Below, one piece after another: positions 11,888 through 64,000 of a stretch of DNA of 64,000 nucleotides. Positions within the stretch are counted from its first letter, which is position 1. Each line of letters starts with the position of its first letter. Both the position numbers and the translations under genes were made by a program. The notes beneath the pieces were generated by a model that worked only from the letters and a program-made list of their open reading frames with translations, did no database searches and was not told where the DNA came from. The stretch comes from Mobula hypostoma. Its lineage: Eukaryota. The stretch spans positions 26,910,001 to 26,974,000 of the forward strand of contig NC_086108.1 of the NCBI RefSeq assembly GCF_963921235.1. The letters are read 5' to 3'.

Positions 11888-12120
11888 CACAAGAGATTCT
11901 GCCGATGCTAGAAATCCAGAGTAACACACACAAAATATTGGAGGAACTCAGTAGGTCAGGCAACACCAATGGAAAGGAATAAATAGTCAATGTTTTGGGC
12001 CAAGACTCTTCATCAGAGCTGAGTCCTGATAAAGGGCCTCTGCTTGAAATACTAATTTTTTATTCCTCTCCATGAATGCTGCCTCACCTGATGAGTAAAT
12101 CCGGCATTTTGTGTATGTTT
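11888..12120. mobile_element. Palindromic mini-element made of two inverted PLE termini, with two degenerate hammerhead motifs
   Basis: Left arm (tail + ACACACAAAAT...CTTCATCAG) is the reverse complement of the right arm (AGTCCTGATAAAGGG...ATTTTGTGTATGTT). Confidence 0.8.
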
Positions 12121-12419
12121 CTTTGCTTTCTAAATCACACTTAATTGACAATTCCTTTGCTCTATTTTTTATCAAATGATTCAAAATAAAACCAGCAAAG
12201 CAGAACTAAACATTTGAAAATAATCAATGAAAATCTGTTGAAAACATTCTGTCTTGTAAAGCAAGTTTGAAAAAGTGTGAACAGAGTGAAGGGCAAATCA
12301 ATCAATAGATTCAATCAAAAGTTTCCATTTGGCTTGGAAACCTGCTGTTTTTCCAAAACCATCAAATGTAAAAAATAATGAAACCAAAAAACATAAACTT
12401 TTCATATTGACATGGAATT

Positions 12420-15396: not shown

Positions 15397-15520
15397 AAAA
15401 TCAAAACAACAGCAAATGCTGGAAATCTGAAACAAAAACATTAAATGCTAGCAAAGTTAAATCAATATACATCATCTATGGAAAGAGATACAGTCCACAT
15501 TTTCATCCTTCATCAGATTA
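15397..15520 (-). mobile_element. Old PLE terminal fragment
   Basis: GCAAATGCTGGAAATCTGAAAC...CATCTATGGAAAGAG...CCTTCATCAG matches the PLE terminus seen elsewhere in the window. Confidence 0.55.
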
Positions 15521-15574: not shown

Positions 15575-15921
15575 GTTCTGTGATTAATCTAGACAGGGTG
15601 CATGAGAGATTTACAAAGATGTTGCTGGGACTGGAAGGCTTCCGCTATGAGAAGAAACTGAGTGGGCTACGACTATTTTCTCTGAAACAAAGGACGCTGA
15701 GGGGTGAGGTTTATAAAATTAAGTGAGGCATAGATAAGGTGAATGATCACAGTGCTTTTCCACTGCAGGGGAGTTTAAAACTAGAGGGCATGATTTTAAG
15801 ATGAGGGGGGAAAGATGTGAAGGGGACTTGATGGGCAAGTTTTTCACACAGATGATAATGGGCATATGGAACAAGCTACCAGAGGAAGTGATTAAGGGTA
15901 GTACATTTACAAAAATTAAAA
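15575..15921 (+). mobile_element. CR1 3' fragment, resuming at ~17685-17825 after PLE and pogo insertions
   Basis: RVHERFTKMLLGLEGFRYEKKL..L.LFSL.QRTLRG; FFTQ....WNKLP. Confidence 0.8.
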
Positions 15922-16871
15922 GGTGTCATAAAGTAAAAGGAGGTATCATTTCCAACACCTCCCTCCTTTCTCGATCGCTCTATCTCTATCTCCAGAGACA
16001 GTTATCCACTGATGCCTATTGCAAACCCATGGACTCTCACAGCTATCTGGACTATACTTCTTCCCAAACTGTTACTTGTAAAAATGCCATCCCCTTCTCT
16101 CAGTTCCTCCATTTCTGCCACATCTGCTCTCAGGAGGAGGTTTTTCATTCCAGAATGAAGGAGATGTCCTCCTTCTTCAAAGAAAGTAGCTTCCCTTCCT
16201 CCACCATTAACTGTCATATACTGTATCTCGTACTCCCGGTGTGGTCTCTCGTATAACGGTGAGACCCTACACAGATTGGGAGACTGCGTCACCAAGCACC
16301 TATGCTCTGTCAACCAGAAAAAGCGGGATCTCCCAATGGCTACCCATTTTAACTCCACTTCCCTTTCCCTTTGCGACATGTCCATCCATGGTCTCCTCTA
16401 CTGTTGTGATGAGGCCACACTCAGATTGGAGGAACAACATCTTATATTCTGTCTGGGTAGCCTCCAACCAGATGGTATGAACATCAATTTCTCAAACTTC
16501 TGGTAATGCCCCCCTGTTCTCTATTCCCCATCCCATTTTTCCTCTCTCACCTTATCTCCTTACCTGCCCATCACCTCTCTCTGGTGCTCCTCCCCTTTTC
16601 TTTCTTCCGTGGCCTTCTGTCCTCTCCTATTAGATTCCCCCTTCTCCAGCTCTGTATGTCTTTCACCAATCAACTTCCCAGCTCTTTACTTCACCCCTCC
16701 CCCACTCCTAGTTTCACTTATCAACTTTTGTTTCTTCCTCCCCTCCTAAATCTGACTACTCATCTTTTTTTTCCAGTCCCGCTGGAGGTTCTTGGCCCAA
16801 AATGTCGACTGTACTCTTTTCCATAGATGCTGTCTGGCCTGCCGAGTTCCTCCAGCATTTTGTGTGCGTTG
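15922..16871 (+). mobile_element. Penelope-like element, 5'-truncated and internally deleted (RT thumb + GIY-YIG remnant + terminus)
   Basis: YCKPMDSHSYLDY...NAIPFSQFL...EEQHLIFCLGSLQPDGMN; 12-bp TSD CAAAAATTAAAA at 15910-15921 and 16872-16883; degenerate hammerhead motif near 16775. Confidence 0.85.
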
Positions 16872-20597: not shown

Positions 20598-20872
20598 TTT
20601 TTATTTATTTTTTGATATAGCGTGGAACAGGCCCTCCCAGCCCTTCAAGCCACACTACTCAGCAACATCCGATTTAGCCCTAGTCTAATCATGGGACAAT
20701 TTACAAGACCAATTAACCTACTGACAGGTATGTCTTGGACTGTGGGAGGAAACCGGAGCACCCGGAGGAAATCCAGTCAAAGAGAGAATGTACAAACTCC
20801 TTACAGAGAGCGGCGGGAATCAAGGCCAGGTCTCTGGTCCTGTAAAGTATTGTGCTAACCACTACACTACCA
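20598..20872 (-). mobile_element. V-SINE whose tRNA head is interrupted by the PLE (resumes at 23029)
   Basis: TTGGACTGTGGGAGGAAACCGGAGCACCCGGAGGAAA; head CTAACCACTACACTACC. Confidence 0.85.
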
Positions 20873-20932
20873 ACACACATCAAAGTTGCTGGTGAACGCA
20901 GCAGGCCAGGCAGCATCTCTAGGAAGAGGTAC

Positions 20933-20968
20933 AGTCGACGTTTCAGGCCGAGACCTTTCGTCGGGACT
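20933..20968 (-). ncRNA. Minimal type-I hammerhead ribozyme motif with a core mutation (CCGACGA)
   Basis: Minus strand: AGTC-CCGACGA-AAGGTCTCGGCCT-GAAA-CG-TC-GACT. Confidence 0.7.
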
Positions 20969-21225
20969 AACTGAAGGAAGAGTTAGTAAGAGATTTGAAA
21001 GTGGGAGGGGGAGGGGGAGATCCAAAATGATAGGAGAAGACAGGAGGGGGAGGGATGGAGCCAAGAGCCGGACAGGTGATAGGCAAAAGGGATATGAGAG
21101 GATCATGGGACAGGAAGCCCAGGGAGAAAGAAAAGGGGGAGGGGGAAATCCAGAGGATGGGCAAGGGGTATAGTGAGAGGGACAAAAGGAGAAAAAGGAG
21201 AGAGAGAAAAAGAATGTGTGTATAT

Positions 21226-22025
21226 TGTGACGTCAAACCAAGCTATCGGATGATTGATGCTCATGAGAGAGATAAGAGAGACAATGGAGAAACATTCAAA
21301 ATGCTAATAAGAGAGGAGAGAGGGATTAACGGAAAAGAAACACAATTCAGAATATTGACAGACCGGTTGCTTTGAACCTGAACTGTTTGAAGTTTGATGG
21401 ACAGGTGATACCCCAGCAGGGGGATAAAAAGAGCAGGTTCACTAAGGCACGGGACACCACGAGACCATGAGACAACGAGACCCTGGAAAGAGCGGTGTGC
21501 CCCCACAAGTGGTGGGAGTTTGGAGATCCAATTCGTGGGAACCGACCATAGGCTCACAGGGTGTAAAGGTACGATCAGTGGGAACCTGGTGTGTGTGTCC
21601 GCCCTTGCCTGGGTGCCGGGTTCAGCGCGGAAGAACGATCGTATCCGGAACAGAGGGGTCACAGTCGGTGACCACAGCGGGATAGAAGACATCAAAAAAG
21701 GTCTGCCCGAAACCAACTGCGAAGACATCAAAGGTCTGCCTAAACCAAATTGCAGCCCCCCCCCCAACGGTACAACAGCGATTACTGCGAACTGCACAAG
21801 CTGAAATGAACTCTGCGTCACTGTAAGATTGATCATTTTGCCCCTAGACTGCGATAGAGCTTGGTTGATTCCTATTACCCTAGTTCTATGTATAGGCATG
21901 CATTATCATTGATAACCTGTTACATTTATATCCTTATGATTAGAGCACTGTATTATTTGTTTCTTTATTAAAATTTATTAGTTGTTACTAATCCAGACTC
22001 CAACCCAGTTACGGGGTACATAACA
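21226..22025 (+). mobile_element. Solo LTR (800 bp) inserted in the PLE 3' region
   Basis: TGTGA...TAACA termini; 4-bp TSD ATAT (21222-21225, 22026-22029); the uninterrupted PLE copy at ~53661 lacks it; TATA-like GGGGATAAAAAG and ATTAAA signal. Confidence 0.88.
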
Positions 22026-22068
22026 ATATAAATAAATAACGGATGGGGCACGAGGGGGAGGTTGGGCA

Positions 22069-22968
22069 TTAGCGGAAGTTTGAGAAGTCAATGTTCATGC
22101 CATCAGATTGGAGGCTACCCAGACGGAATATAAGGTGTTGTTCCTCCAACCTGAGTGTGGCTTCATCTTTACAGTAGAGGAGGCCATGGATAGACATATC
22201 AGAATGGGAATGGGGCGTGGAATTAAAATGTGTGGCCACTGGGAGATCCTGCTTTCTCTGGCGGACAGAGCATAGGTGTTCAGTGAAACGGTCTCCCAGT
22301 CTGTGTCGGGTCTCGCCAATATATAGAAGGCCACATCGGGAGCACCGGACGCAGTGTATCACCCCAGCCGATTCACAGGTGAAGTGTCGCCTTACCTGGA
22401 AGGACTGTCTGAGGCCCTGAATGGTGGTAAGTGTGGAAGTATAAGGGCATGTGTAGCACTTGTTCCGCTTACAAGGGTAAGCGCCGGGAGAGAGATCAGT
22501 GGGGAGGGATAGGGGGGACGAATGGACAAGGGAGTCACGTAAGGAGCGATCCCTGCGTAAAGCAGAGAGAGTGGGGGAGGGAAAGATGTGCTTAGTGGTG
22601 GGATCCCGTTGGAAGTGGCAGAAGTTATGGAGAATAATATGTTGGACCCGAAGGCTGGTGGGGTGGTAGGTGAGGACCAGGGGAACCCTATTCCTAGTGG
22701 GGTGGCGGGAGGATGAAGTGAGAGCAGATGTGCGTGAAATGGGGGAGATGCGTTTGAGAGCAGAGTTGATAGTGGAGGAAGGGAAGCCCCTTTCTTTAAA
22801 AAAGGAGGACATCTCCCTCGTCCTGGAATGAAAAGCCTCATCCTGAGAGCAGATGCGGCGGAGACGGAGGAATTGTGAGAATGCAGTGCCAATGCAGTCG
22901 TCGATGTAGCGAAGGAAAATTGGGGATGTGGGGCACCATCCTTCCGCCACCCCACTAGGAATAGGCAA
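22069..22968 (-). pseudogene. PLE RT(partial)-GIY-YIG endonuclease open frame with in-frame internal deletion
   Basis: 299-aa frame; YIDDCIGTA joined directly to FSQFLRLRRICS. Confidence 0.85.
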
Positions 22969-23249
22969 CTTTGATGTGTGTTGCTTGAATTTCCAGCATC
23001 TGCAGAATTCCTCGTGTTTGCATTTTTAACTACACTACCATGTCGTCATATGGAGGTGATAACTTTGTGAATAGATCCATGTTACACAATATATAGCCTG
23101 TGTATCAAATTTGGCCAGCTTGAAGTTCCTCTCTGCTCTTTCCCCACCTCAACAGAGCATGCAACTTGGTTGTGACCCTGTATGGGCGAACCATTCTTCA
23201 TCCACATGAAACAGTCTGAAATTAGATCATCCTTAAGGTACTACCAACA

Positions 23250-26534: not shown

Positions 26535-26753
26535 GCAACACATACAAAATGCTGGAGGAACTCAGCAGGACAGGCAGCATCTATGGAAAAGGGTACAGTT
26601 GATGTTTTGGGCTGAAACCCAGTCCTGCTGAAGGGTTTCGGCCTGAAATGTTGACTGTACTCTTTTGGATAGATGCTGCCAGTTACGTTGAGTTCCTCCA
26701 GCATTTTGGGCACGTAGCTTGGATTTCCAGCATCTGCAGATTTTCTCTTGTTT
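26535..26753. mobile_element. Palindromic PLE-terminus mini-element with a hammerhead motif
   Basis: 26535-26620 is the reverse complement of ~26633-26718; plus arm starts AGTCCTGCTGAAGGGTTTCGGCCTGAAATGTTGACT and ends in the tail GGATTTCCAGCATCTGCAGATTTTCTCTTGTTT. Confidence 0.85.
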
Positions 26754-49159: not shown

Positions 49160-49370
49160 CAAGAGGTTCTGCACATGCTGGAAGTCCAAAGCACAAGGTG
49201 CTGCAGGGACTCAGCAAGTCAGGCAGTATACTGTCTATGGAAATGCAAAAAACAGTCAGCTCTTTGGGCCAGTCCTGATGAAGGGTCTTGGCCTGAAACA
49301 CCGACTATTTATTCATTTCCATACATGCTCTCTAACCTGCTGAGTTCCTGCAGCATGTTGTGTGTGTTAC
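49160..49370. mobile_element. Palindromic PLE-terminus mini-element with a hammerhead motif
   Basis: Inverted arms; AGTC-CTGATGA-AGGGTCTTGGCCT-GAAA-CACC-GACT at 49271-49306. Confidence 0.8.
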
Positions 49371-49679
49371 TCTCAAATTTTCCTGGAGTCTGTTACAGAA
49401 TGTCATTACATATGAGGTACAATGAACTGCATAAAGGATAACAACAGATTGCAGGAAGATAGAGACAGGCAGCAGGTAAACTTTAATGCTAAGAAATGCC
49501 ACACCATGAATCAACCTAGTGAACCTTGTTATATTCACTTTGACACTGATCTATCAATGATTAGACAGTGAGTGCAGACCTGTACACCATAGTGCAGAGA
49601 GGTTTTGATAAGGCTCATTACAATTACAGTTAGGAGTGCTTATTCTGATTGTCAAATCCTCACAATGACAGCTGATAAC

Positions 49680-50250
49680 ACCATTTATCTTTCTAATTGC
49701 TTGCATGTTTACTGTTTGTGATTTGTGCAAAATGATACCTAGATCTCTCTGAACACCAACACCTTATAATATCTTGCCATCTATGAAACACATTGCCTTT
49801 CTATTTTTCTACCAAAATAGATGGCCTTATAATATTTTTTCTGCATCATATTCTACTTGTCATCTTTTTGCCCAATCACAATCAATCTCTATTTCCCTGA
49901 AGTCTCCCAGCATTGTCCTCACAACACACACTGCTACCCAGGTTTGTATCATCAGCAAATATGAGCACATTATATTTGACCCAAATCATTGAGATAGATT
50001 GTGAACAGCGAAAGCTTCTGCATGGATCCCTATGGCTTCCCACTAGACCCAGCACCTGACCAAAAATGACTCATTTATTCTGACTCCCGCTCTTCTATTT
50101 GTTAGCTAGTTTACTATCCACACCAGTATTATATACCAATGCCATGGGTTCTAAAGTGATTTAATAATTTGAAAAGCAAGCAACCTCTTGTGTGTCACCT
50201 TATCAAAGTCCTTCTTAGACTCTAAAGATAGCCACATCATCCTGTCAACC
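49680..50250 (-). mobile_element. Old CR1 RT fragment
   Basis: Antisense of FADD (TCATCAGCAAAT) and FDKV.H (TGTCACCTTATCAAA). Confidence 0.6.
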
Positions 50251-50989
50251 CCTATTTATATTCATAGTTCGTGTTATATTAAATTTTGTAAATGATTGCA
50301 TGGATGTCTGGAGGGTAATATGACAATTTAAGTCTTTCTGAACGTTTAGCATGTGGTGTCTGTATGCTTATTAGTGAGTAAGGTTTACAGGGTGCCTATG
50401 CAGTGTAAACAATGTTAATGCCTGTAGAATGTCTGCTAGTGACTAGATCACTTTGTGAGCTAGTTTGATGGATTCTTTCTTAGTGTCTGCAATCCAGCTT
50501 ATTATTTATGTGTGTAAACCTTGTTGCTCTTTTGGAGTCTGAGGAATATTGTGGACTTGCAGGCGAAGAGTGACTATTAAAGTGTCTAATTGATTTGTGA
50601 GCATATGCTGAACACTGTTAACGAACATGTGTTGTTTGAATAAAAGAAATCATGCTAAGTAAGAACGAAGAGTTTCTCTGCCTCGTGGCTCCTCTGAGCT
50701 TGGGAAACTTGCCTTTAATGTGGTTGCCTTTCCTGGTTTCATTGGACTTCTATAAAGGCTGGATCATGATTGGTGCTTGTGCCAAGGGGTGGTTTCACGA
50801 TTAACTCAGAGGAGTTCACGAGGAGCTCCCCAACAAAAGCAACAATCAAGTGGTGACTAAGAATCATGACCCCTGAATTTTTTGTGGAAATTTTTGTGAC
50901 TTTCTCCAAGAGAACCACAACCTTGTTGTAGTTTAAGGCTTGCGTGGCTCAATAACCTGGAGATCTGTGTTGGCTGGAGGGAGGGATTT

Positions 50990-51860
50990 ATTAGATTAGA
51001 TTAGATTAGATTAGATTTTATTGTCATTGTGCCGAGTACAGATACAAAGCCAATGAAATGCAATTAGCATCTAACCAGAAGTGCAAAAGAATAGTATTAT
51101 TTAAAAAACAACTGCAAATAAAAAGTAAGTGTTACAGCATATAAATATAAAAGTACTGAGACAGTAGAATATAGGTGCAATACTGCTTAGCGCTGTGATG
51201 TGAGGTTCAGCAGGGTCACAGCCTCAGGGAAGAAGCTTTTCCTGAGCCTGCTCATGCTGGAGCGGAGGCTCCTGTAGCGCCTACCAGATGGGAGGAGAGT
51301 AAAAAGTCCATGGTTAGGGTGAGATGCATCCTTGATAATGCTTTTCGCCCTGCCCAAGCAGCATTTATGGTAGATGTTCTCAGTGGTGGGCAATTGGGTG
51401 CCGATAATCCGCTGGGCAGTTTTCACCACCCGCTGGAGTGCTTTGCGGTCCGATACGGGACAATTACCATAGCACACTGAGATGCAGTTGGTGAGTATGC
51501 TCTCAATGGTACAGCGGTAAAAGTCCATCAGTGTCCTGGGACAGAGGTGAGCTTTCTTGATGTTCCGCAGGAAATGAAGGCGCTATTGCGCCTTTTCGAT
51601 CAAGATAGAGAAGTTCAGGGACCAGGTGAGATCCTCGGAAATGTGAACACCAGGGAATTTGAAGCTTGATACATGCCACACTACAGCTCCGTTGATGTAG
51701 TTGGGGATGTGAGTGTGGCTCCTAGCATGCCTGAAGTCCACAATGATCTCCTTAGTCTTCTGGGTGTCTGGGTGTTAAGAGCCAGGTTGTTATCGGCACA
51801 CCACGTTGCCAGGTGCTGGACCTTGTCCCTGTAGGCCGTCTCGTCATCCCCTCCAATCAA
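50990..51860 (-). mobile_element. Rex1/Babar LINE 3' fragment with (TCTAA)n tail, inserted into an RTE-like 5' segment (~50900-52170)
   Basis: ORF 51187-51528 FYRCTIESILTNCI...SHPNHGLFTLLPSGRRYRS...SFFPEAV; (TTAGA)n; AGGGAT on both sides. Confidence 0.88.
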
Positions 51861-53381
51861 GGGATGCTTTGGCTCTTGGTAGAGTCATTCATGCCGAACA
51901 GGTTAAAGGATAGAGGTCAGGCTAAGAACGATCCACCAGTCCTCCAGGTTTGGGTTTTCAGCTCAGGCCTAACAGCCCTGAATAATAAAACAAAATTGAT
52001 ACTGAAACAGAAATGAAGAATCCTTTTAGGTCTGAGTGCAATGGTATTCCTGAGTCTCCACCTGCGACTTACATGACTGACAGTAGTGAAATCTAAGAAG
52101 CCACTGACACGATGAAGGAAGCCCTGAATACCACCAGAGATGAAGGACCTTCACTGCTGCCAGCAGATACAGGCAATTTTCTCTCTTATGAATTACTATG
52201 TAGGTTTATTTGTGCTTTCTATTTTAAGATAATAAATTAGGTTTCAGTAATGTTGTTGTGCTTGTACCACCTATTACCATATCTCCTGGACACTCAAATA
52301 GTTTGTGTCAGATCAGCTCAGCCCATTACAAAGCTACACCGATTCAAATGCTATTAGAATTATAAAATGTAATTTACATTTTACAAGTCCATCCTATCCT
52401 GGTTAAGTTAGGGCATATTGTGACTCAAAGGCTCAAGTTTAAATCACACCTTCGCAGATATGGAAGTTACATTCTCCTAATAATCTAGATTTTTAAAAAA
52501 GTCTGGTCATTGGTAATAATCTAATGAATTGCTGTAAAAAATTACAGTATTGGAAAATGGAATGTAACCCAACAGGTGCAAGGTGATGCGTTTTGGGAAA
52601 TCAAGTGGGGCTTAGGACAAATACAGTTAATGTTAGGGTGCTAAGGAATGTTGATGAACTCAAGGACATTGGGGTTCAAGTCCATAATTGCCTGGAAGTG
52701 GCAATGCAGGTCAATATGATAATGAAGAAAACATACATCTTGCTTGCCTCCATAGAGCAGAGAATATAAAAAAGGTGGGATATTTTGTTATTACTTTGCT
52801 AAACACTGCTTACTGCTCTTGAAGTATTGTGTATAGTTCTGTTTGCCAAACAAAATGAAGGATGTGCTTGCACTGGAGAGAGTACAGAGGAGATTTACCA
52901 GGATGCTGACTGGAATGAAGGACTTCAATCAAGGATAGACTGGAGTCATTATCCTTGGGGAAAAAAAGGTGCTGAGGAATGACTTAGTAGAGGTATATGA
53001 AATTATAAGAGACATAAATAAGATAGAAAGGTGCTTCTATCAATATGATCCCAATGGAAATTACAGTGTCACAGTAGCATTACAAGTTCACAGATATACA
53101 ATATTTGCTGAGAAGTAAGAATAAATAAAAAGAAATAAGTTACCTTAAAAAGTCTAACAGGAAGGGGTCATCACTTCCCCAGCTCCCTCATGGCTGAGCC
53201 TTATGTCTGAGGGTAAGGAGAATAATCAGAATCTTTCTCTGACAGCATGAGTGTTAAAAATAAAATGGCATAGACTTAGGGTGAGAGGAAATAGTTTTAA
53301 AGGGGATCCAAGGAGTAAGTAACACACATCAAAGTAGCTGGTGAATGTAGCAGGCCAGGCAGCATCTCTAGGAAGAGGTAC

Positions 53382-53417
53382 AGTCGACGTTTCAGGTCGA
53401 GACCCTTCGTCAGGACT
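53382..53417 (-). ncRNA. Minimal type-I hammerhead ribozyme with intact core
   Basis: AGTC-CUGACGA-A-GGGUC-UC-GACCU-GAAA-CG-UC^GACU: stem I AGUC/GACU, stem II, palindromic ACGU stem III, GUC cleavage triplet. Confidence 0.85.
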
Positions 53418-53709
53418 AGCTGAAGGAAGAGTTAGTAAGAGATTTGAAAGTGGGAAGGGGAGGGGGAGATACAAAATTATAGGAGAAGACAGAAGGGGGA
53501 GGGATAGAGCCAAGAGCTGGACAGGTGATAGGCAAAAGGGGATACGAGAGGATCATGGGACAGGAGGTCCGGGAAGAAAGACAAGGTGGGGGGGACCCAG
53601 AGGATGGGCAAGAGGTATATTCAGAGGGACAGAGGGGGAAAAAGGAGAGTGAGAGAGAATGTGTGTATAAAAATAAATAACGGATGGGGTACGAGGGGGA
53701 GGTGGGGCA

Positions 53710-54126
53710 TTAGCGGAAGTAAGAGAAGTCAATGATCATGCCCTCAGGTTGGAGGCTACCCAGACAGAATATAAGGTGTTGTTCCTCCAACCTGAGTGTG
53801 GCTTCATCTTTACAGCAGAGGAGGCCGTGGATAGACATGTCAGAATGGGAATGGGATGTGGAATTAAAATGTGTGGCCACTGGGAGATCCTGCTTTCTCT
53901 GGCGGACGGAGCATAGATGTTCAGCAAAGCGGTCTTCCAATCTGCGTCGGGTCTCACCAATATATAAAAGGCCACATCGGGAGCACCGGATGCAGTATAT
54001 CACCCCAGTCGACTCACAGGTGAAGTGTTGCCTCACCTGGAAGGACTGTTTGGGGCCCTGAATGGTGGTAAGGGAGGAAGTGTAAGGGCATGTGTAGCAC
54101 TTGTTCCGCTTAGTGGATCCTGACAC
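53710..54126 (-). CDS. PLE GIY-YIG endonuclease domain, open frame, 5'-truncated
   Basis: KCYTC...HFTC...VIYCIRCSRCGLLYIGETRRRL.DRF.EH. Confidence 0.75.
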   Translation of the reverse strand: MSGSTKRNKCYTCPYTSSLTTIQGPKQSFQVRQHFTCESTGVIYCIRCSRCGLLYIGETRRRLEDRFAEHLCSVRQRKQDLPVATHFNSTSHSHSDMSIHGLLCCKDEATLRLEEQHLIFCLGSLQPEGMIIDFSYFR

Positions 54127-54538
54127 TTATCCTTGTAAGCGGAACAAGTGCTACACACGCCCTTACACTTCCTCCCTTACCACCATTCAGGGCCCCAGAC
54201 AGTCCTTCCAGGTGAGGCAACACTTCACCTGTGAGTCGACTGCGGTGATACACTGCGTCCGGTGCTCCCAATGTGGCCTTCTATATATTGGCGAGACCCA
54301 ACGCAGACTGGGAGACCGCTTTGCTGAACACCTACGCTCTGTCCACCAGAGAAAGCAGGATCTCCCAGTGGCCACACATTTTAATTCCACATTCCATTCC
54401 CATTCTGACATGTCTATCCATGGCCTCCTCTGCTGTAAAGATGAAGCCACACTCAGGTTGGAGGAACAACACCTCATATTCCGTCTGGGTAGCCTCCAAC
54501 CTGATGGCATGAACATTGACTTCTCTAACTTCCGCTAA
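54101..54538 (+). CDS. PLE GIY-YIG endonuclease domain, open frame, 5'-truncated
   Basis: YPCKRNKC...VIHCVRCSQCGLLYIGETQRRLGDRFAEH...LGSLQPDGMN. Confidence 0.75.
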   Translation: MFRLVDPDTYPCKRNKCYTRPYTSSLTTIQGPRQSFQVRQHFTCESTAVIHCVRCSQCGLLYIGETQRRLGDRFAEHLRSVHQRKQDLPVATHFNSTFHSHSDMSIHGLLCCKDEATLRLEEQHLIFRLGSLQPDGMNIDFSNFR

Positions 54539-54833
54539 TGCCCCCCCTCCCCCTCGTACTCCATCCGTTATTTATTTTTATACACACATTCTTTCTCTCA
54601 CTCTCCTTTTTCTCCCTCTGTCCCTCTGACGATACCCCTTGCCCAGCCTCTGGTTCCCCCCCCACCTTGTCTTTCTCCCCAGACCTCCTGTCCCATGATC
54701 CTCTCAAATCCCCTTTGTCAATCACCTGTCCAGCTCTTGGCTCCATCCCTCCCCCTCCTGTCTTCTCCTATCATTTTGGATATCCCCCCTCCCCCTCCCA
54801 CTTTCAAATCTCTTACTAACTCTTCCTTCAGTT

Positions 54834-54869
54834 AGTCCTGACGAAGGGTCTCGGCCTGAAACGTTGACT
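54834..54869 (+). ncRNA. Minimal type-I hammerhead ribozyme (GUU triplet)
   Basis: AGTC-CTGACGA-AGGGTCTCGGCCT-GAAA-CG-TT-GACT. Confidence 0.8.
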
Positions 54870-56316
54870 GTACCTCTTCCTAGAGATGCTGCCTGGCCTG
54901 CTGTGTTCACCAGCAACTTTGATGTGTGTTGCTTGAATTTCCAACATCTGCAGAATTCCTGTTGTTTGCCAAGGAGTAAGTATTTATTTTCCACAGAGAA
55001 ACGTGGATATCTGAAAAGTGTTGCCAGAGATGGTTATGCAACTAGATATAATCACTATGATTGAGAGACATTTAGGCTAGTACTTGAATAGGTGAAGCAT
55101 AAAAAAGGTATGGCCCCATGATAGGATAGTAGAGTTAGCACAGATTAGTAAAGAGATTGGCCTGGCCACAATGGGATCATTTCTGTGCTGTAGAACTTGG
55201 CGACTGTGATTCTATTGTGCTCAAATTGGCAGTTGTGGAAGTTACAATCAGTTGAGTTATAAACGTCTCTCCCCTGAGAATGTTGGAGCACTTTCTCTCT
55301 CCACTGCAGACTCCCTCTCACTTTGGCAGCCATAACATGCACTGTCACTGTACAGCTCCATGGGACAGGTATATTGAGTGCAGAAATATTTCTTACATGG
55401 TTGCATAGGCAAAGAAAGGTGGAATGGGATTGAAGCAGTGGCAGCTGGATTGAATTGATCACTGTGCTGATGCGTCCCTCACATATTGAATTTTGTATCT
55501 TCTCTTTGGGTTGAAGACATGCTAACACTACTATGTATTTGTTCTGATCTTATTCTACAATTCTTTTTCTGAGTCTTTACTTGATCCTGAGAGCACAAAA
55601 AACCTGAGTTTAAACTCCCTCCCGCCTGAAAAAGAACAATTCTGTTTCTCTGCACATATTATGTGATCAAATGCTTGGCCTTTGCAGCTTTCATATGAGC
55701 TTCAAACTGAACCCTTTTGAATCTTCTGTGCCAGATAGAACAGCTTTTATGTGAAGATATCAAGGAGTGTTTACTGATTAATGATGTGTTACTGCAGAAT
55801 TTTCTGGACTGAATTTCTCTGATACATGAGGGATTTCAGTTCACTATCTACACCTGAAAAGCAGCTAAGCTGTCTCAAGCATTAGCCAATTCCATCTCAA
55901 CCTTCTGTGTCATTTCTGCAAGAAAAGGACTGTTCATTACTTGTGACCTTTGGCTTCAGGTACTTTTTGCTGGAAGGTATCTGGTGATGCTTCTCCCTGG
56001 AATAACACCTTTGCTCAACAAACATGAAATCCAATACAGTTGCCTGTGACAAAACAGCAGGTGGCTGCTTGATGTTTTGTGGACATACAAATCCCCTCAG
56101 CCCCATTTATTTTCTTCTTACTTTTTTTCTGCTCTTCAGAATTCTGCTTAACACATGACCATTAATACCCCTTGATTTGTTTTGTCATTAGCCTAAAGTA
56201 CAATACTGTAACCAGTTAAGTGATAGAATGTCTTCAGGGTATTAGAGTAAAAGCTCTTGAGGAAACCCACAGGGTCACAGAGCTAACAAGTAAACTCTGT
56301 ACAAACAGCAATAAAG

Positions 56317-56770
56317 GTCAAAGTTCAAAGTACATTTATTATCGAAGTATGTATACATTATACAACCTTGAGATTTGTCTTTTTACAGGCAGCAACAAAA
56401 TCAAGGAACCCAAGAGAACCCATAAAAAAAACGACAAATAACCAATGTTCAGAGAAAAATAAACAAGTTGTGCAACCATAAAAGTAAGCAATTAGTATTT
56501 AGAACAAAAGTGAGTCCTCAGACATAAAGTTCAGAGCAGCCGAAGCAGGCCCCAACCACAGCCTCAGCCTCAGTTCAGCACATAGTGGAGTAAATGTTGC
56601 AGAGCCCACAGACACGAAGCACTGAGCAGCCACAGCAGCCACAACCTCAGCCTCAGTGCAGTACAAAGTGAAGTAAATATCGTGAAGCAGCAAGCAGAAC
56701 CAACCCGACCCTCACCTCTGGTCCTGAGACTCTTGCCTTTATAATCTATCTGTCCCACATTAAAGGTGTG
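56317..56770 (-). mobile_element. Non-autonomous retroposon with Rex1-type (CTTTGAA)n tail and a non-coding body with an internal ~45-bp duplication
   Basis: CAAAGTTCAAAGTACATTTATT tail; CACARCCTCAGCCTCAGT...GTAAAT occurs twice (~56557, ~56640). Confidence 0.55.
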
Positions 56771-56915
56771 TACATACATCTATTGATGCTTCTGGACACA
56801 TCTTCAGTGATGTTCCTGGAATCATCGGGTGTTTCGGGTCTTTCAACATCATACAACCTCCTCCAGGTGACCCAGCCGGGGCTGATCAGACCCCAGCTTG
56901 TGTCCAGATGGCTAG

Positions 56916-57422
56916 CTACTTATGACTCCATGGCTCCCCTCTTTTGAGCCGCAGCCATCTTGAGGCCCTCTCTGCCGCATCGGTGGTACTGCGGATGGCT
57001 CTCCTCTTCCTCTCTCCCTCAATGCTCAAAATGCTGAAGGCTCTAACTAAAGAACGGGCTATGAATCCCCTACAATCAACCTCCACTGGGAGACACCTCG
57101 CTCTCCATCCAGCCTGCTGACAGTTGCTGACCAGTCCTGCGTACTTGGAGAGCTTCCTTTCAAAGGCCTCTTCCAAGCGATCTTCCCATGGGACTGTCAG
57201 CCCCAGCAGCACCACTTGCTTAGTAGATTCAGACACTAGGACAATGTCTGGCCACAGGGTGGTGGCTGCGATATGGTTGGGGAACTTCAGCTGCCCTTCG
57301 AGGTCCACCAACAGCTTGCAGAGGTCAGAAAGCCTGCAGATGTTCTTTTGGCAGGTATTGGCTGCTCCCCAGCTCTGACAAAGGCAATGGTCTGCTTGGA
57401 GGGTCGGGACCACTTCGCCCAC
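56916..57422 (-). pseudogene. HERO-type RLE endonuclease domain
   Basis: PD..(E)LTVPWE...K..KY motif; the catalytic E appears as G in this copy. Confidence 0.85.
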
Positions 57423-58116
57423 TCAAATCCTGCGCTGACGGCTTCAGCGATGGTCTTCAGGACCTGATCATGCCTCCATCGGTACCGTCCTTCACCAAGT
57501 GCCCTTGCACAGCCGCTGAGGATGTGCTCCAGGGTTTCTCACTTGGAGCACAGTGGGCTCGCAGATGACTCTGCCTTGCGCCATGTGTGCAGGTTTGATG
57601 GGCTTAGAAGCACATCGTACACTGCCTGGATGAGAAATTGGATGCGGTGTGGTCAGCTTTCCAAAGATCAGCCCAGGTCACTTTCCTCTCAGCTGCATTC
57701 TCCCATCTTGTCCAAGCTCCCTGTTGCTTCATTCCCACCGCCTTGCAGGCTCCCATCTCCTCCATTACTGCTCTCACCTCCTCCTGAACTAGACGACGCC
57801 TTTCCTTCCCTCTGGTGTCCATTTGGGGGGTTGGAAAGGATCCTAGCCCAGCTCGGCCTCGTGTGACCACTTCCACCAGCCTCCTGTGATGCAGCCTTGC
57901 CTCTGCCTCCTGAACAGCTTCCTCTGCCCTCCACTTCCTGCCAGTACTTACTTGGATCCCTGCTGTAGCCACCTTCGGGTCACTTGAGTCCCTATATCGT
58001 AGCACTTCTCTGGCTCTTGTTACCTTGAATTCTTCCTCCAAGGATCTGAAGGGCAGTTGCAGTTTGTTGTGGTGTCCATAGAGTGCGATGCTGCTCAGGC
58101 TCTTTGGCAGCCCCAG

Positions 58117-59373
58117 CTATCTCCTGAGGTGGTTGCTAACCCTCCTCTCTAAGGTTTCGACTGTCGAGATTGGAACTGCATAGATGAGGAGGGGCCACAG
58201 GATTCTGGGAAGAATGCCATGCTGATACACCCAGGCTTTAAACTTCCCAGGTAGGCCAGACTTGTCCACAGATTTCAGCCAGCCATCCAACTCGGTGCAG
58301 GTTGCCTGAATGGATGTTGTGTCCCTTAAAGAGCTGTCAAAAACTTTGCCTAAGCTCTTGACTGGCTTTTCTATGATGGTTGGGATGGCTGTGTCTGAGA
58401 TGCTGAACCGGAACTTGTTCTCCACCTTCCCTTTCCTCAGCACCATCGATCTTGATTTGGCAGGTTTGAAACGCATCCAGGTCCACTCCACCAGCTTTCC
58501 GAGCACTTGCAGAATCCTCCGGCAGCCTGGGACTGATTCTGTGGTGACTGTGAGGTCATCCATGAATACCCTGATAGGTGGTTGCCATTGAACGGAATTC
58601 ATTCTGGGCCCTCTGCACTCTGGTTCAGCAGACTTAGTGAGCATGTTCATGGCTAGGGAGAACAGTGTCACTGAGATCGTGCACCCTGTGATGATGCCGA
58701 CCTCCACCTTGTGCCAGGTTGATGTAATTGCTCCTGAAGAGACCCTCATCCTGAAGTTGCTGTAATAATCAGCGATAAGGTCTCTGATTCTGCTGGGGAC
58801 GTGATATTTGGTCAGTGTGAGCTGCACCAGCTTGTGCGGAATGGAGCCATATGCATTCGCCAGGTCGAGCCACAACAGTGACAGGTTGCCCTTGTTCTCT
58901 CTGGCCTCCCTGATGAGCTGTGTCACCACACCGATGTGCTCCAGACAGCCCGGCATCCCTGAAATGCCACCCTTCTGGACTAATGTATCAATATAGGTGT
59001 TCTTTGCTAGGTAGGTGCACAGCCGGTTAGAAACTGCACTGAAGAAGATCTTCGCCTCGACACACAGCAGGGAGATGATGCGAAACTGATCTATCTGGGT
59101 GGCAGTTTCCTCCTTCGGGATCCACACCCCTTCAGCCACTCTCCACTGTTCTGGGATCTTCCCCCTTCTCCAGAAGATTCTCAGGATCTTCCACAGACTC
59201 AGCAGGAGTTTGGGGCAGTTCTTGTACACTTTGTACGAGGTGTTGCTTGGTCCTGGAGCCGAGCTTGCCCTTGCTTTGCGGACGACCTCTCTGACTTCCT
59301 TTAGTTGCAGCTCTGACACGTCGAACTGCACATCCGGTTCAGGTGGGTCTATTAGGATGTCGCACTCTCCCAA
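58117..59373 (-). pseudogene. HERO-type reverse transcriptase domain
   Basis: 418-aa open frame with RT motifs. Confidence 0.88.
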
Positions 59374-60574
59374 CTCCTACTGTCTTTCAGGATCATTATA
59401 TATCTTCTTCAGATGTTGATCTATGTCTTCCTGTGAACAGGCCAGTTTCCCACTGCGCTTCTCCCCCAGCAACTCCTTGGTGAACTTGAAGGGGTTGGCG
59501 ATAAAGGCAGCACGTTTTCGAGCCCTTTCACGACGACGCCTCCGATGCCACTCTGCCCGGCAGAGGACCCTGATCTTCTTTCGTAGTATGCACATCAGCT
59601 GGGCCAAGCCAATGCGCTCCTCTTCTCCTGCCTCCTTGTATTGGGACTCCAGCGCTTTCATCTCCTGCCTGATGTTGTGGATCCTCAATGCTCTTTGGTT
59701 CTTCGAGTAAGATGTTTTAGAGCTTTCCTTCTCCTCCCCTCCAAACCGTTCAGCTGCGATACTAACAATAATTGTTGTCATGGTTTGCAGCTTCCTATCA
59801 ACCCCTCCCTTCGCCGTTGCCTCCAGAATCTGGTTAACATCTTCATCAAACTGCTTCCACAGTGAAGTCATGTTAGCTGCAGGTTATTTGATCCGCCTCC
59901 TGTTAGACTTCATGTTCAAGGGATTAGTTTGCAACACTTGGAGGTTCCGGGCACTATGGGGTGACTCCGGGCCTGGCCCCTCCTTCGTCTCACCAGGTTG
60001 GACACCTGCGTGTTGTGCTGCTCCTGCTCCCGCCAAACACTTCATCCTCGCTTGGGGAGTCAGGAGAAAATCAAGTCAGGAATATGAGAACATGCAGCAC
60101 TTTTGACCAAAATATCAAAATTCCCCCAAAGAGGAGAAAATAATTTAATGGAAATATTATCTGCACCTGCCATTTTGTTTCATTGCACTTAAGTTCATCC
60201 AATATTAGCCAGAATTAACTAAAGTAAAAATTTTGGTTACAGTAATTAATCAAATTGTTTGCAAAATGGGCATTGATCAAAATTGAGAAATGAATTAGAT
60301 AACACATGTCTGTCAGTTTCTCATCTCCTGTTCTGATTTGCTCCCAGAAGCTCGCAACGCCCAATACCAGTCATTACCCCTGGCAAGGGAGACCTGCCAG
60401 TTGTAAGTCCAGTACAGCTTTGAGGAAACTGAATTACTAAAGTAACAGGGAGTTTCAGTAATGAACTGGTGAGGGCAGGATTACAGTCCATTGTGGTACT
60501 GCAATGTAACTGTATGCATAGGGGTGCAGCAGTGCAGGACTGAAAGGATGTCATCATGAGGGTACATCTGAGTG

Positions 60575-60838: not shown

Positions 60839-61185
60839 TGTTGCAAGAACGTGGCTGGGGACGAACCCAAGTGCAGGACACAGATGCTGAGGCAGAGTCG
60901 TTAGGCGTAGCACCTCCGTGAACAGGGAGCCAATATCCAGGAGACGATGCGAAGCTTAGAACTAACAGTTCTCAGGAATAAGAAACAACGTTTACTCTCA
61001 CAAGAGTCGACCAACGAACTGGCGGCTTCTTGCTCTGGTCACAGTGTTTTTATCTTGCCGTTTGATGGGAAGCAGGTGCGTGTAGTTAGTAGTACTTGGG
61101 AATGATTGGAATCTAAATGAGGTGATCGAGGCCCAAATCTTGAGGCAAATGGCAAGGTGGGGGATTGCCAGATGGGACCATGACA
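60839..61185 (-). mobile_element. 3' LTR (347 bp) of the Sushi-like Ty3/Gypsy element
   Basis: Minus strand TGTCA...CAACA, immediately preceded by the polypurine tract TTGAGGGGGGGGGGTGGTAC (~61186-61205). Confidence 0.88.
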
Positions 61186-64000
61186 GTACCACCCCCCCCC
61201 CTCAATGGGAGCCTCCAGGCGATCCTCCCCGCCTGTCCGGATGGTCCTGATGAAAATCCTGGATGAGGGAAGGGTCTAGGATGGAGACGCGGGGGACCCA
61301 GGGATGCTCTTCTGGACCATACCCTTCCCAGTCTACCAGATATTGGAGACCCCTGCCCCGAAGGGGCACATCTAGTAGTCATCGCACGGTGTATGCCGGA
61401 CGGTTGTCGATGATACGGGCAGGTGGAGGAGTCTTGGCTGGGGGACACAGCGGGCTGATGGAAACTGGCTTTAACTGAGACACATGAAAGGTCGGGTGGA
61501 TGCACATGGATCTAGGCAGCTTTAGGAGGACCACTGTGGGATTGATTACTCTTTCAACCTTGAATAGTCCCAGGAAGCGAGGGGCAAGTTTTCTATGTTC
61601 GTTCTTGAGCGGGATGTACTTGGAGGCCAGCCACACCATCTGCCCAGGTTGGTACTCCAGCGCCGGGATACGGTGTCAGTCAGCTGTCTTCTTATTTCGA
61701 TTTGTTGATTTGAGTAGGGCCGTGCGCGTCTCCTCCCAAATCTTAAGGCACCGATTAATATGGTCCTGAACCGACGGTACTGCAATCTCTTCTTCTTGCG
61801 CGAGAAACAGCCGGGGTTGGTACCCAAGGGAGCACTTGAACGGAGACCTCCCAATGGCAGAGCCCACCAGAGAGTTGTGGGCGTACTCAACCCACGGGAA
61901 GTGGCCGCTCCAGGTCGATGGGTTGTTTTCCGTTACACAACGAAGCGTCGCCTCCAGGTCTTGGTTTGCCCGTTCCGTCTGCCCATTCGTCTGGGGTGGA
62001 AGCCGGATGACAGGCTGACAGATGCGCCCAAGGCTTGGCAGAAGGCCTTCCATACTTGCAAGACAGACAGGGGACCTCGATTGGAGACGATGTCTGCAGG
62101 GATTCCGTGGAGGTGGAAGATGTGGCGGACGAGAAGATCTGCGGTTTCCTGAGAGGAAGGAGGTTTAAGGAGGGCTACGAAGTGCACCGCCTTAGAGAAC
62201 CGGTCTATCACGGTGAGGACAGTGGTGTTTCCGCGGGAAGGGGGTAGACCGGTGACGAAGTCTAAGGCGATGTGTGACCAGGGGCGACCAGGGACAGGTA
62301 GAGGACGAGGTAGCCCCGCAGATGGTCGATGAGAAGCCTTTCCCCGGGTACAGATGGAACAAGCTGAGACTTAAGAACGGGTGTCCCCCTCCATGGACGG
62401 CCACCAAAAGTACTTCCTCAGGAGAGCCAGGGTCCGATCACTCCCAGGGTGGCAGGCAAACCGGGATGTGTGCCACCACTGGAGAATCTGGGACCTGATG
62501 GAGGCGGGCACGTACAGGCAATCACCGGTCCATTGCCCCGGTCGGGGTCGTCCCACTGGGCTTCCTTTACTTTAGCCTCGATCTCCCAAGTGAGGGTGGC
62601 CACCATGCAGGAGGGTGGGCGGATAGTCTCGGGACTGGATGTGTCATCCTTGGAGTCATGCTGGCGGGACAGCACATCTGGCTTCCCGTTCTTGAATCCT
62701 AGATGGTACATGAGGGTAAACCTGAACCGACCAAAGAATAATGCCCTACGGGCCTGGCGAGAATTCAGACGTTTGGTGGTCTGGATTTATTCAAGGTTCT
62801 TATGGTCTGTCCAGACGATGAATGGGTGCTCCGCCCCCTCCAACCAGTGCCTCCATTCTTCCAATGCCAGTTTGACCGCCAGTAGCTCCAGTTCCCCACG
62901 TCGTAATTTCGTTCAGCGGGAGACAGTCGGCGAGAAAGGAAGGCACAAGGATGTAGTTTCTGATCCGGGCCCGAACGTTGGGACAGTACCGCTCCCACCC
63001 CGGAGTCGGAGGCGTCAACATCCACAATGAATTGACAGGAGGGGTCCGGTTGAATCAGAACGGGAGCAGACGTGAAGTGCCTCTTTAGTTCCGCGAATGC
63101 TGAGTCCGCCTCGGAGTTCCACAGGAAAGGTGTGGCAGGTGAGGTAAGTCGGGTCAGAGGAGCCGCCACCTGACTGTAGTTTCTGATGAACCGGCGATAG
63201 AAGTTCGCAAACCCCAGGAGCCGTTGGAGTTGCTTGCGGTCCGTGGGTTTGGGGCACTCCATCACAGCCCGGATCTTCTCGGGATCAGCCCTTACCTGTC
63301 CGCTCTCGATGATATAACCTAGGAAGCTGACCGAAGGGACATGGAATTCGCACTTCTCCGCCTTTACGAATAACTTATTCTCCCCCAGTCTCTGCAGGAC
63401 TTGACGGACATGAAGAACGTGTTGCTGGGGACTGCTGGAAAAGTTTAGGATGTCATCCAGATAGACAAACACAAAGCGGTTAATAAAGTCTCTTAGTACA
63501 TCGTTAATCAAGGCTTGAAAGACTGCAGGGGCATTGGTGAGGCCAAAAGGCATGACCAAGTACTCGACATGGCCTAAAGGGGTATTGAATGCTGTCTTCC
63601 ACTCGACCCTCTCCCTTATTCGGACCAGATGGTAGGCGCTTCGTAGGTCCAGCTTCGAGAAGATGGCGGCTCCGTGAAGTGGTTCGAACGCAGAACTTAT
63701 CAGAGGCAGTGGGTACTTGTTCTTTATGGTTATATGATTTAGGCCTCGATAGTCGATGTAGGGACGTAGGGAACCATCCTTCTTCCCCACGAAGAAGAAC
63801 CCTGCGCCCACCAGGGAGGATGACAGTTGGATGATTCCCGCTGCGAGAGATTCACTGATGTAACCCTCCAATGCTTCCCTCTCTGGCCGGGACAAGTTAT
63901 ACAGCTGACTGGTGGGCAGAAGAGCTCCGGGGAGAAGTTCGATAGCACAATCGTATGGTCGGTGTGGAGGCAGGGAAAGGGAGCGTTGCTTACTAAACAC
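61186..64000 (-). mobile_element. Sushi-like chromoviral Ty3/Gypsy pol (RT, RNase H, integrase, chromodomain), frameshifted, running off the window
   Basis: [25 protein letters not shown]; RNase [12 protein letters not shown]; integrase GHPG-like zinc finger, [30 protein letters not shown]; chromodomain [13 protein letters not shown]. Confidence 0.95.
62765..64000 (-). pseudogene. Gypsy RT/RNase H frame
   Basis: 411-aa ORF track entry; leaves the pol frame after ERNYDVG. Confidence 0.9.

Follow-up and report, generated by a model that had tools for sequence, protein, structure and literature searches.

A head-to-head insertion of a Penelope-like retrotransposon in the Mobula hypostoma genome, and how its two arms may have arisen

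The 64-kb window of Mobula hypostoma DNA analysed here (contig NC_086108.1; all coordinates are positions in this window) contains a near-palindrome in which two 5'-truncated copies of the 3' end of a Penelope-like element (PLE) stand head to head. We are highly confident that this structure is a dead-on-arrival insertion of a Penelope-like retrotransposon and that it has a single origin. The mechanism proposed for it, in which each of the two 3' ends of one cut target primes a cDNA on the element RNA, is an evenly balanced proposition when taken by itself; identity, single origin and two-primer mechanism combined provide the best explanation of the locus as a whole, and this combined account is considered reasonably probable.

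The 14-mer CCAAGGAGTAAGTA is present exactly twice in the window, at 53308 and 54969, with no occurrence on the other strand, and between its two copies lies the insert, which spans 53322-54968 (1647 nt). The chance of such a 14-mer pair at ends like these is about 5e-7, even with 100 offsets allowed. The target site duplication (TSD) that the pair represents is 14 bp long with an ambiguity of 1 nt per end, since the innermost base on either side is also compatible with element sequence. Both flanks are collinear with another repeat copy at about 15735-15922, and their alignment to this copy scores 104 with one 14-mer versus 90 with two, leaving a residual gap of 5 nt; on this alignment the flanks are the two parts of one older repeat which the insertion has interrupted. 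We take this older repeat to be CR1-like; the Pfam search of the flank reading frame returned nothing, and hence no family.

The left arm, on the minus strand, is 791 nt long and the right arm, on the plus strand, 851 nt; they differ at 51 of 790 aligned columns (6.5%, or 93.5% identity), mostly by transitions (37 of 51), and the few short indels between them all fall within the pyrimidine-rich 3' part. Between the arms lie 5 nt (54113-54117) or, if the left arm is read as extending to 54118, there is an overlap of 1 nt. Because the plus arm is about 18 bases longer than the minus arm at its 5' end, the hairpin loop is 10-23 nt long, and at the centre of the insert a 10-nt loop sits on a stem formed by an inverted match of 4 bp. 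A tail that starts at 54930/54931 and ends at 54968 is confined to the plus arm, and the insert contains no reverse transcriptase (RT) sequence. An earlier interpretation made from the letters alone (the sequence-only reading) had proposed a palindrome of two reverse-complementary arms, with a tail of about 38 nt on the plus arm only and no RT, inserted as one event with one 14-bp TSD, and all of this agrees with what is found; its spacer of a few nucleotides holds for the 5 nt between the arms but not for the hairpin loop. The unique TSD, the collinear host repeat and the one-sided tail mark the locus, as far as sequence can establish it, as a genuine single Penelope-like insertion.

Contigs of four runs were aligned to the right arm and the right flank only. 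A contig of run X1 (organism A) corresponds to 54945-56000 with zero differences, and one of run X5 (organism B) corresponds to 54947-56000 with 17 substitutions and 4 gaps, the divergence of the flank between the two organisms being about 1.6%. Each of these contigs holds 22-24 nt of the tail fused to the TSD and flank, an overlap which falls below the 31-letter bridging rule, and the contigs stop where the repeat starts. Judged by these contigs, the right junction is real in two organisms, and since it occurs in both, the insertion predates their split. Contigs of two runs guessed to be RNA cover the repeat and not the right flank, and provide no evidence either way.

The arms belong to a large family. 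In run X1, 233,682 contigs align, nearly all of them to the arm; loose contig ends before 54118 run on into upstream family sequence, and two family-wide 3' ends can be recognised from the loose ends that follow 54931 and 54969. A protein search, confined to longer proteins, gives 14 matches among 74 candidates, of which the closest is 93% identical and is named from M. hypostoma, the others being from Hypanus sabinus. The relatives that were fetched (P0001-P0005, P0007 and P0013), together with a second element in the window (20872-23021), have RT-like sequence upstream of the endonuclease in the same frame; the RVT_1 match in P0013 (E 1e-4) is below the cut-off, and no solved-structure match was found for P0005. 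Because the relatives carry an upstream in-frame RT and the family contigs continue upstream of 54118, the start of the arm is a 5' truncation of a very abundant RT-plus-endonuclease element, one that chances to lie immediately ahead of the endonuclease, and not the boundary of a separate small element. The sequence-only reading had seen here an RT-less, endonuclease-only unit, and this claim finds no support: both arms are 3' stumps of an RT-plus-endonuclease gene, and the appearance of an “endonuclease-only unit” arises by coincidence, from the length at which the arms were truncated and from their youth. Three of the gene models that contain element sequence bear the names of host genes (P0003, P0005 and P0013, named mucin-2, divergent protein kinase domain 1C and chitinase domain-containing protein 1), which suggests mis-annotation or exonisation in ray genomes.

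The assignment of the family to a clade depends on the linker upstream of the endonuclease. According to the definitions in the available text of PMC8557442, Neptune and Nematis elements have a CX2-5CxxC linker motif upstream of GIY-YIG, and Penelope/Poseidon elements are without it. A CX4CxxC motif occupies this position in the second element and in most relatives; it is truncated in the left arm, and one Cys is changed in the right. Because the linker motif is present, the family is placed as Neptune/Nematis-like, a high-copy family with a C-terminal endonuclease in which the two clades are not told apart, and membership of Poseidon (Penelope/Poseidon clade) was rejected. The alignment shows two Cys between GIY and YIG (CCHH type), as in endonuclease-containing (EN+) PLEs, and the locus shares with these elements a putative hammerhead motif in the terminal repeat (by descriptor), a one-end tail of 30-40 bp, an inverted 5'-truncated copy and a TSD. 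Two other candidates were rejected. The accessible part of a preprint on non-LTR (long terminal repeat) retrozymes (bioRxiv 10.64898/2026.07.22.740005) describes tandem head-to-tail units, each with a type-I hammerhead, and the locus instead has two inverted arms; a discrete non-autonomous or stand-alone endonuclease element is contradicted by the lack of a fixed 5' boundary and of an ATG before the motif and by the neutral ratio of coding differences given below. A 29-nt family pattern had no match in metagenome contigs, and a literature search that covered few subscription papers brought up no publication dealing with the family or proposing two-primer synthesis, coupled or otherwise.

Further insertions of the family were sought in the window with the terminal 189 nt as the query, supplemented by a fuzzy motif search and alignments. 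Six insertions were found, of which five are two-armed (53322-54968, 20872-23021, 26535-26753, 11889-12130 and 49160-49375) and one, at 15922-16871, is single-armed; a 33-nt match near 15470-15502 (E 0.03) was left out of the count as too short. In the second element the long tail-less minus arm reaches the RT motif via an internal deletion, and the plus arm consists of a 29-nt inverted linker piece (22937-22965, matching 22687-22715) and the last 57 nt with the tail. This element is itself interrupted by an insert of about 800 bp (21225-22025) with a TG start, a CA end and a 4-nt duplication, presumably a solo LTR. The pairs at 26535-26753, 11889-12130 and 49160-49375 are older and short, with 74-80% identity to the right arm, and the junction between their arms is at the 5' side of the hammerhead motif. 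The first and the last of these yielded no TSD. The single-armed copy is older, tail-less and internally deleted, has a 12-bp TSD (15910, 16872) and adjoins the same kind of older repeat as the insertion at 53308-54982. Family contigs show joints around the hammerhead (54834-54878), one of which is listed as a strand change from 54835 to 54877, a pattern that agrees with numerous short fold-back copies at other loci.

The two-armed insertions can be compared arm by arm. Exactly one arm carries the tail in the three clear pairs, and probably also in two old ones, a pattern which would arise by chance, if the arms were independent, once in 8 times for three pairs and once in 32 for all five. The 5' ends of the two arms nearly coincide in four of the five two-armed copies. 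The extra 5' bases belong to the tailed arm in 53322-54968 and 26535-26753, and to the tail-less arm in at least two others, 49160-49375 and the second element.

The two outer ends of the insert are both 3' ends of the element, each at a different one of the two family-wide end points. The integration reaction that we infer would proceed as follows. An RT-endonuclease protein supplied by an intact copy elsewhere would cut both target strands 14 nt apart, as the length of the TSD indicates. Each exposed 3' end would then prime a cDNA on the element RNA, one from an inner start site, giving the tail-less arm, and one from an outer start site 38-39 nt further on, giving the tailed arm. Both cDNAs, probably copied from a single template, would halt after about 800-850 nt at nearly one position, and would be linked in head-to-head orientation, overlapping by few nucleotides or none. 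The arms have then decayed neutrally, as the coding comparisons below demonstrate. This scheme has a biochemical precedent in an anole element, for which each strand of the target is cut and then extended, reverse transcription begins at two sites that bound the tail, and the protein is predicted to be dimeric (PMC11167929). The final 5 nt of the left TSD copy could pair, with one wobble, with the RNA at the inner start site, and this pairing may have helped priming there. The arms share an allele at 5 of 24 displayed family-variable sites, including one allele carried by 1-5% of the family depth, and the second element differs at all five; these shared alleles favour one template.

A number of observations weigh against the two-primer mechanism or limit the reach of the evidence for it. 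The allele comparison covers the 24 displayed of 63 variable places counted for run X1, and the right arm shares with the second element two alleles that the left arm does not have, one of them rare (at most 2% at 54251); homoplasy or two templates could explain this. The divergence between the arms (6.5%) is only a little lower than that of the arms from the second element (7.2 and 8.5%). Fold-back is an equally good explanation of the near-coincident 5' ends and of the short inverted match at the centre. The in vitro data come from a Poseidon element, and in them the start site is no different between strands (PMC11167929). The regularities described above come from five insertions in one window. 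No empty allele occurs among the contig pieces listed, and organism B carries the insertion. Of the three junctions, independent contigs confirm the right one; the central one is not among the joints and pieces listed, which are a minority of the rows, and its absence from them proves nothing.

The strongest alternative is also a single insertion, in which the second arm is produced by fold-back or self-priming of one cDNA or of an antisense template, with the endonuclease resolving the product at the tail boundary. We consider this the less likely account, but a real rival: the 4-bp inverted match with its 10-nt loop at the centre, the near-coincident 5' ends in four of five two-armed copies and the rare allele common to both arms are all as fold-back would have them, self-priming on an antisense template is argued for in the accessible text of PMC3846280, and the accessible text of PMC8557442 attributes the tail to endonuclease resolution. 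However, the cDNA end of the right arm alone is not stably folded into the central hairpin (-3.5 kcal/mol, with a different pairing), the tail-less end is a family-wide end that is found also in the single-armed copy, at 16871, and in some copies the loop lies on the tail-less arm. Extra 5' bases placed in this mixed way are not what a plain fold-back of a single tailed cDNA would yield. The second element has 5' sequence only in its tail-less arm and the tail only in the other; because the tail-less arm is long and the other arm is tailed, neither is a plain copy of its partner.

A more specific form of the two-primer mechanism can be advanced tentatively, as a conjecture with somewhat less than an even chance of being right: that in head-to-head Penelope insertions the priming is coupled, the two ends of one staggered cut being extended on a single RNA by a dimeric RT-endonuclease with one subunit at each start site. 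If this is true, it accounts in one step for the inversion, the TSD, the rule of one tail and the coincident 5' ends; this family, very abundant and mostly two-armed, would then make it possible to decide between the coupled reaction and antisense self-priming simply by counting copies; and the genome would have been seeded with many long potential double-stranded RNA (dsRNA) hairpins.

The question of whether the insert has any function can be addressed through its frames and its predicted RNA. As the sequence-only reading had it, each arm has an open GIY-YIG frame: the Pfam domain (PF01541) scores 27.9 bits in the left arm, above the cut-off of 22.6, and 16.2 in the right arm, which is below it. 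In neither frame is there an ATG ahead of the GIY-YIG motif, and in both the first Met lies 42 residues past YIG. The Asn that has become Ile in the left arm is the catalytic one by position, following the definitions in the available text of PMC8557442, and at the sites of the right-arm changes from Tyr to His and from linker Cys to Arg the other base is found in 98-99% of the family depth. The coding differences between the arms comprise 15 non-synonymous and 7 synonymous changes, for a normalized ratio of non-synonymous to synonymous differences (pN/pS) of 0.88 (p=0.82 against neutrality), and both frames are still open in 47% of 4000 simulations with 25 substitutions each (22 were observed). 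Two open frames are therefore expected by chance about half the time, and the arms have decayed neutrally since insertion. The comparison of the left arm with the second element yields a pN/pS of 0.47 (p=0.033), but because this pair includes the history of the master lineage, the value is not taken as selection on the copy at 53322-54968. The second element, interrupted and internally deleted, likewise has an open frame.

In the window the type-I minimal hammerhead descriptor has two matches, 54833-54870 (+) and 53381-53418 (-), and no others; all of 30 shuffles are without a match. The sequence-only reading placed a terminal hammerhead in each arm; the descriptor does find one in each, but among 14 Rfam matches at E<=1 in 50000-58000 none is a hammerhead, and the motifs are near-terminal, lying about 60 nt inward from the tail-less end. 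When the hammerhead regions are folded freely, no hammerhead fold results (z-scores -0.04 to 1.04), and the Rfam matches to microRNA families at the centre of the insert, all under the gathering score, reflect its hairpin shape. In the accessible part of PMC4209133, minimal motifs of this type are reported not to cleave as monomers and to cleave at a low level as dimers. The two motifs lie on opposite strands, and in the predicted fold each sense motif pairs with the antisense copy and is buried in the hairpin. For read-through RNA of either strand the predicted fold has about 770 base pairs, with 10-13 helices of at least 21 bp, in good agreement with the hairpin of about 780 bp that had been expected from read-through on either side; formation of a dsRNA hairpin would require read-through transcription of the locus. 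The insert makes no endonuclease and probably no active ribozyme, and neither the frames nor the ribozymes of the arms, as read from their sequence, give a sign of function.

No A>G excess is found among the differences between the arms: the 50 polarised differences include 1 A>G and 8 T>C versus 28 C>T or G>A, and the template thus shows no editing trace, which says nothing on the editing of present transcripts. Gene conversion near the centre is not significantly indicated (1 difference in the first 62 nt, p ~0.08), private changes are distributed 30:20 between the left and right arms (p=0.20), and homogenisation is not seen, the longest identical run being 53 nt.

A functional RT-less module kept by selection, either as a pair of endonuclease genes or as a hairpin retained for small interfering RNA or editing, is accordingly a very improbable reading of the locus. 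The two open frames, the roughly 770 predicted base pairs with their long helices and the presence of the insertion in two organisms speak for it, but the missing start codons, the conserved residues changed in each frame, the neutral pN/pS, the high chance expectation of open frames, the open frame in the defective second element, the unhomogenised arms and the lack of an A>G excess all stand against it. Just as improbable are two separate insertions at one site or an assembly or chimeric-read artefact, which would suit the central and left junctions not seen in independent data and an arm divergence near the family-wide level, but which are opposed by the single TSD around both arms with no second TSD, by the tail asymmetry, by the four further such pairs in the window, by 51 differences in 790 sites that a fold-back read would not give, and by the right junction, which a contig of organism A matches identically and which organism B also has.

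Table 1. Positions of the features of the insertion, its host repeat and the second two-armed element
Feature	Position	Strand	Remarks
Older dispersed repeat split by the insertion	52800..55090	+	Limits approximate
TSD, left copy	53308..53321	+	14-mer only at 53308 and 54969
Left arm	53322..54112	-	5'-truncated, tail-less Penelope-like 3' end; endonuclease region, pyrimidine-rich 3' region, hammerhead
Hammerhead motif, left arm	53381..53418	-	Minimal type-I; intact core, GUC cleavage triplet
Open frame with GIY-YIG, left arm	53710..54126	-	Stop to stop; conserved Asn to Ile; Zn-finger-like linker motif truncated, first Cys gone
Open frame with GIY-YIG, right arm	54098..54538	+	Stop to stop; first Tyr of motif to His, one linker Cys to Arg
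Head-to-head junction	54113..54135	.	5-nt spacer and about 18 nt exclusive to right arm; 4-bp inverted match, 10-nt loop
Right arm	54118..54968	+	5'-truncated 3' end of the left arm's element, with tail
Hammerhead motif, right arm	54833..54870	+	Minimal type-I; GUU triplet; C at 54865 in 81-84% of family depth
Tail, right arm only	54930..54968	+	38-39 nt; family contigs have loose ends behind 54931 and 54969
TSD, right copy	54969..54982	+	Junction found in contigs of organisms A and B
Second two-armed family insertion	20872-23021		12-bp TSD at 20861 and 23029

Other repeats are present in the same part of the window. A long non-LTR-like element occupies about 56780-60050 (-) and includes a 419-aa open frame (58117-59376) with an RVT_1 match of 71.5 bits; a Gypsy-like element extends over about 61170-64000 (-), its frame at 62765-64000 matching RVT_1 and RT_RNaseH; and a short ATTAG microsatellite at 50985-51020 ends another repeat.

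The locus is of little weight in itself, being one dead copy of a published insertion pattern, and its value is as a clean, long example of how PLEs make inverted insertions, with arms long enough to keep the sites by which descent of both from a single template can be examined. Read-through of such palindromes, if it occurs, would make them sources of dsRNA against the family. A comparison can be drawn with twin-primed L1 inversions. In these, both nicked target ends prime cDNA and the inversion lies inside one TSD, as here; in L1 twin priming the two cDNAs represent different parts of one RNA, whereas here the same part is present twice and both outer ends are 3' ends of the element.

Among PLEs, the Poseidon element PAc of Anolis carolinensis (Frangieh et al. 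2024, PMC11167929) resembles the present family in that its 3' end takes two fixed positions downstream of the hammerhead, separated by about 38 nt, with the tail between them; it belongs to a different clade, and that paper does not address inverted insertions. Neptune and Nematis elements, as characterized in the accessible text of PMC8557442, have in common with the family the CX2-5CxxC motif, the two Cys between GIY and YIG and an endonuclease placed C-terminally behind the RT in relatives, the difference being that the copy studied here is without the RT. The minimal type-I hammerheads of metazoan PLEs, in the portion of Cervera and De la Pena 2014 (PMC4209133) that was available, are similar in their conserved core, 5-bp helix I and practically absent helix III, with a dimer expected; helix II is 3 bp here by the descriptor versus 7-8 bp in the schistosome motifs, and the motifs here lie on opposite strands and so form no tandem dimer in one transcript.

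The closest parallels are in the arrangement of the arms. PLE insertions with an adjoining inverted 5'-truncated copy and a one-sided tail of 30-40 bp are described in the available text of PMC8557442, and that of PMC3846280 describes elements with inverted pseudo-LTRs (pLTRs), a TSD of 9-10 bp and a tail of 31 bp that is carried by one of the inverted pLTRs, and gives head-to-head as the most frequent arrangement; the layout found here is the published norm for PLEs and is common in the window. Pen2a/Pen2 of Adineta vaga and the PLEs of Craig et al. 2021 (PMC3846280, PMC8557442) share with the present insertion, in the text available, the head-to-head inverted copy at the 5' end, the tail on one arm, the single short TSD, the strong 5' truncation and the palindromic junction. 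In A. vaga, as far as the same text of Arkhipova et al. 2013 (PMC3846280) describes it, the inverted part is about 180-210 bp long and the TSD 8-10 bp, whereas in the insertion analysed here both arms are cut to nearly the same point and each retains a whole GIY-YIG domain.

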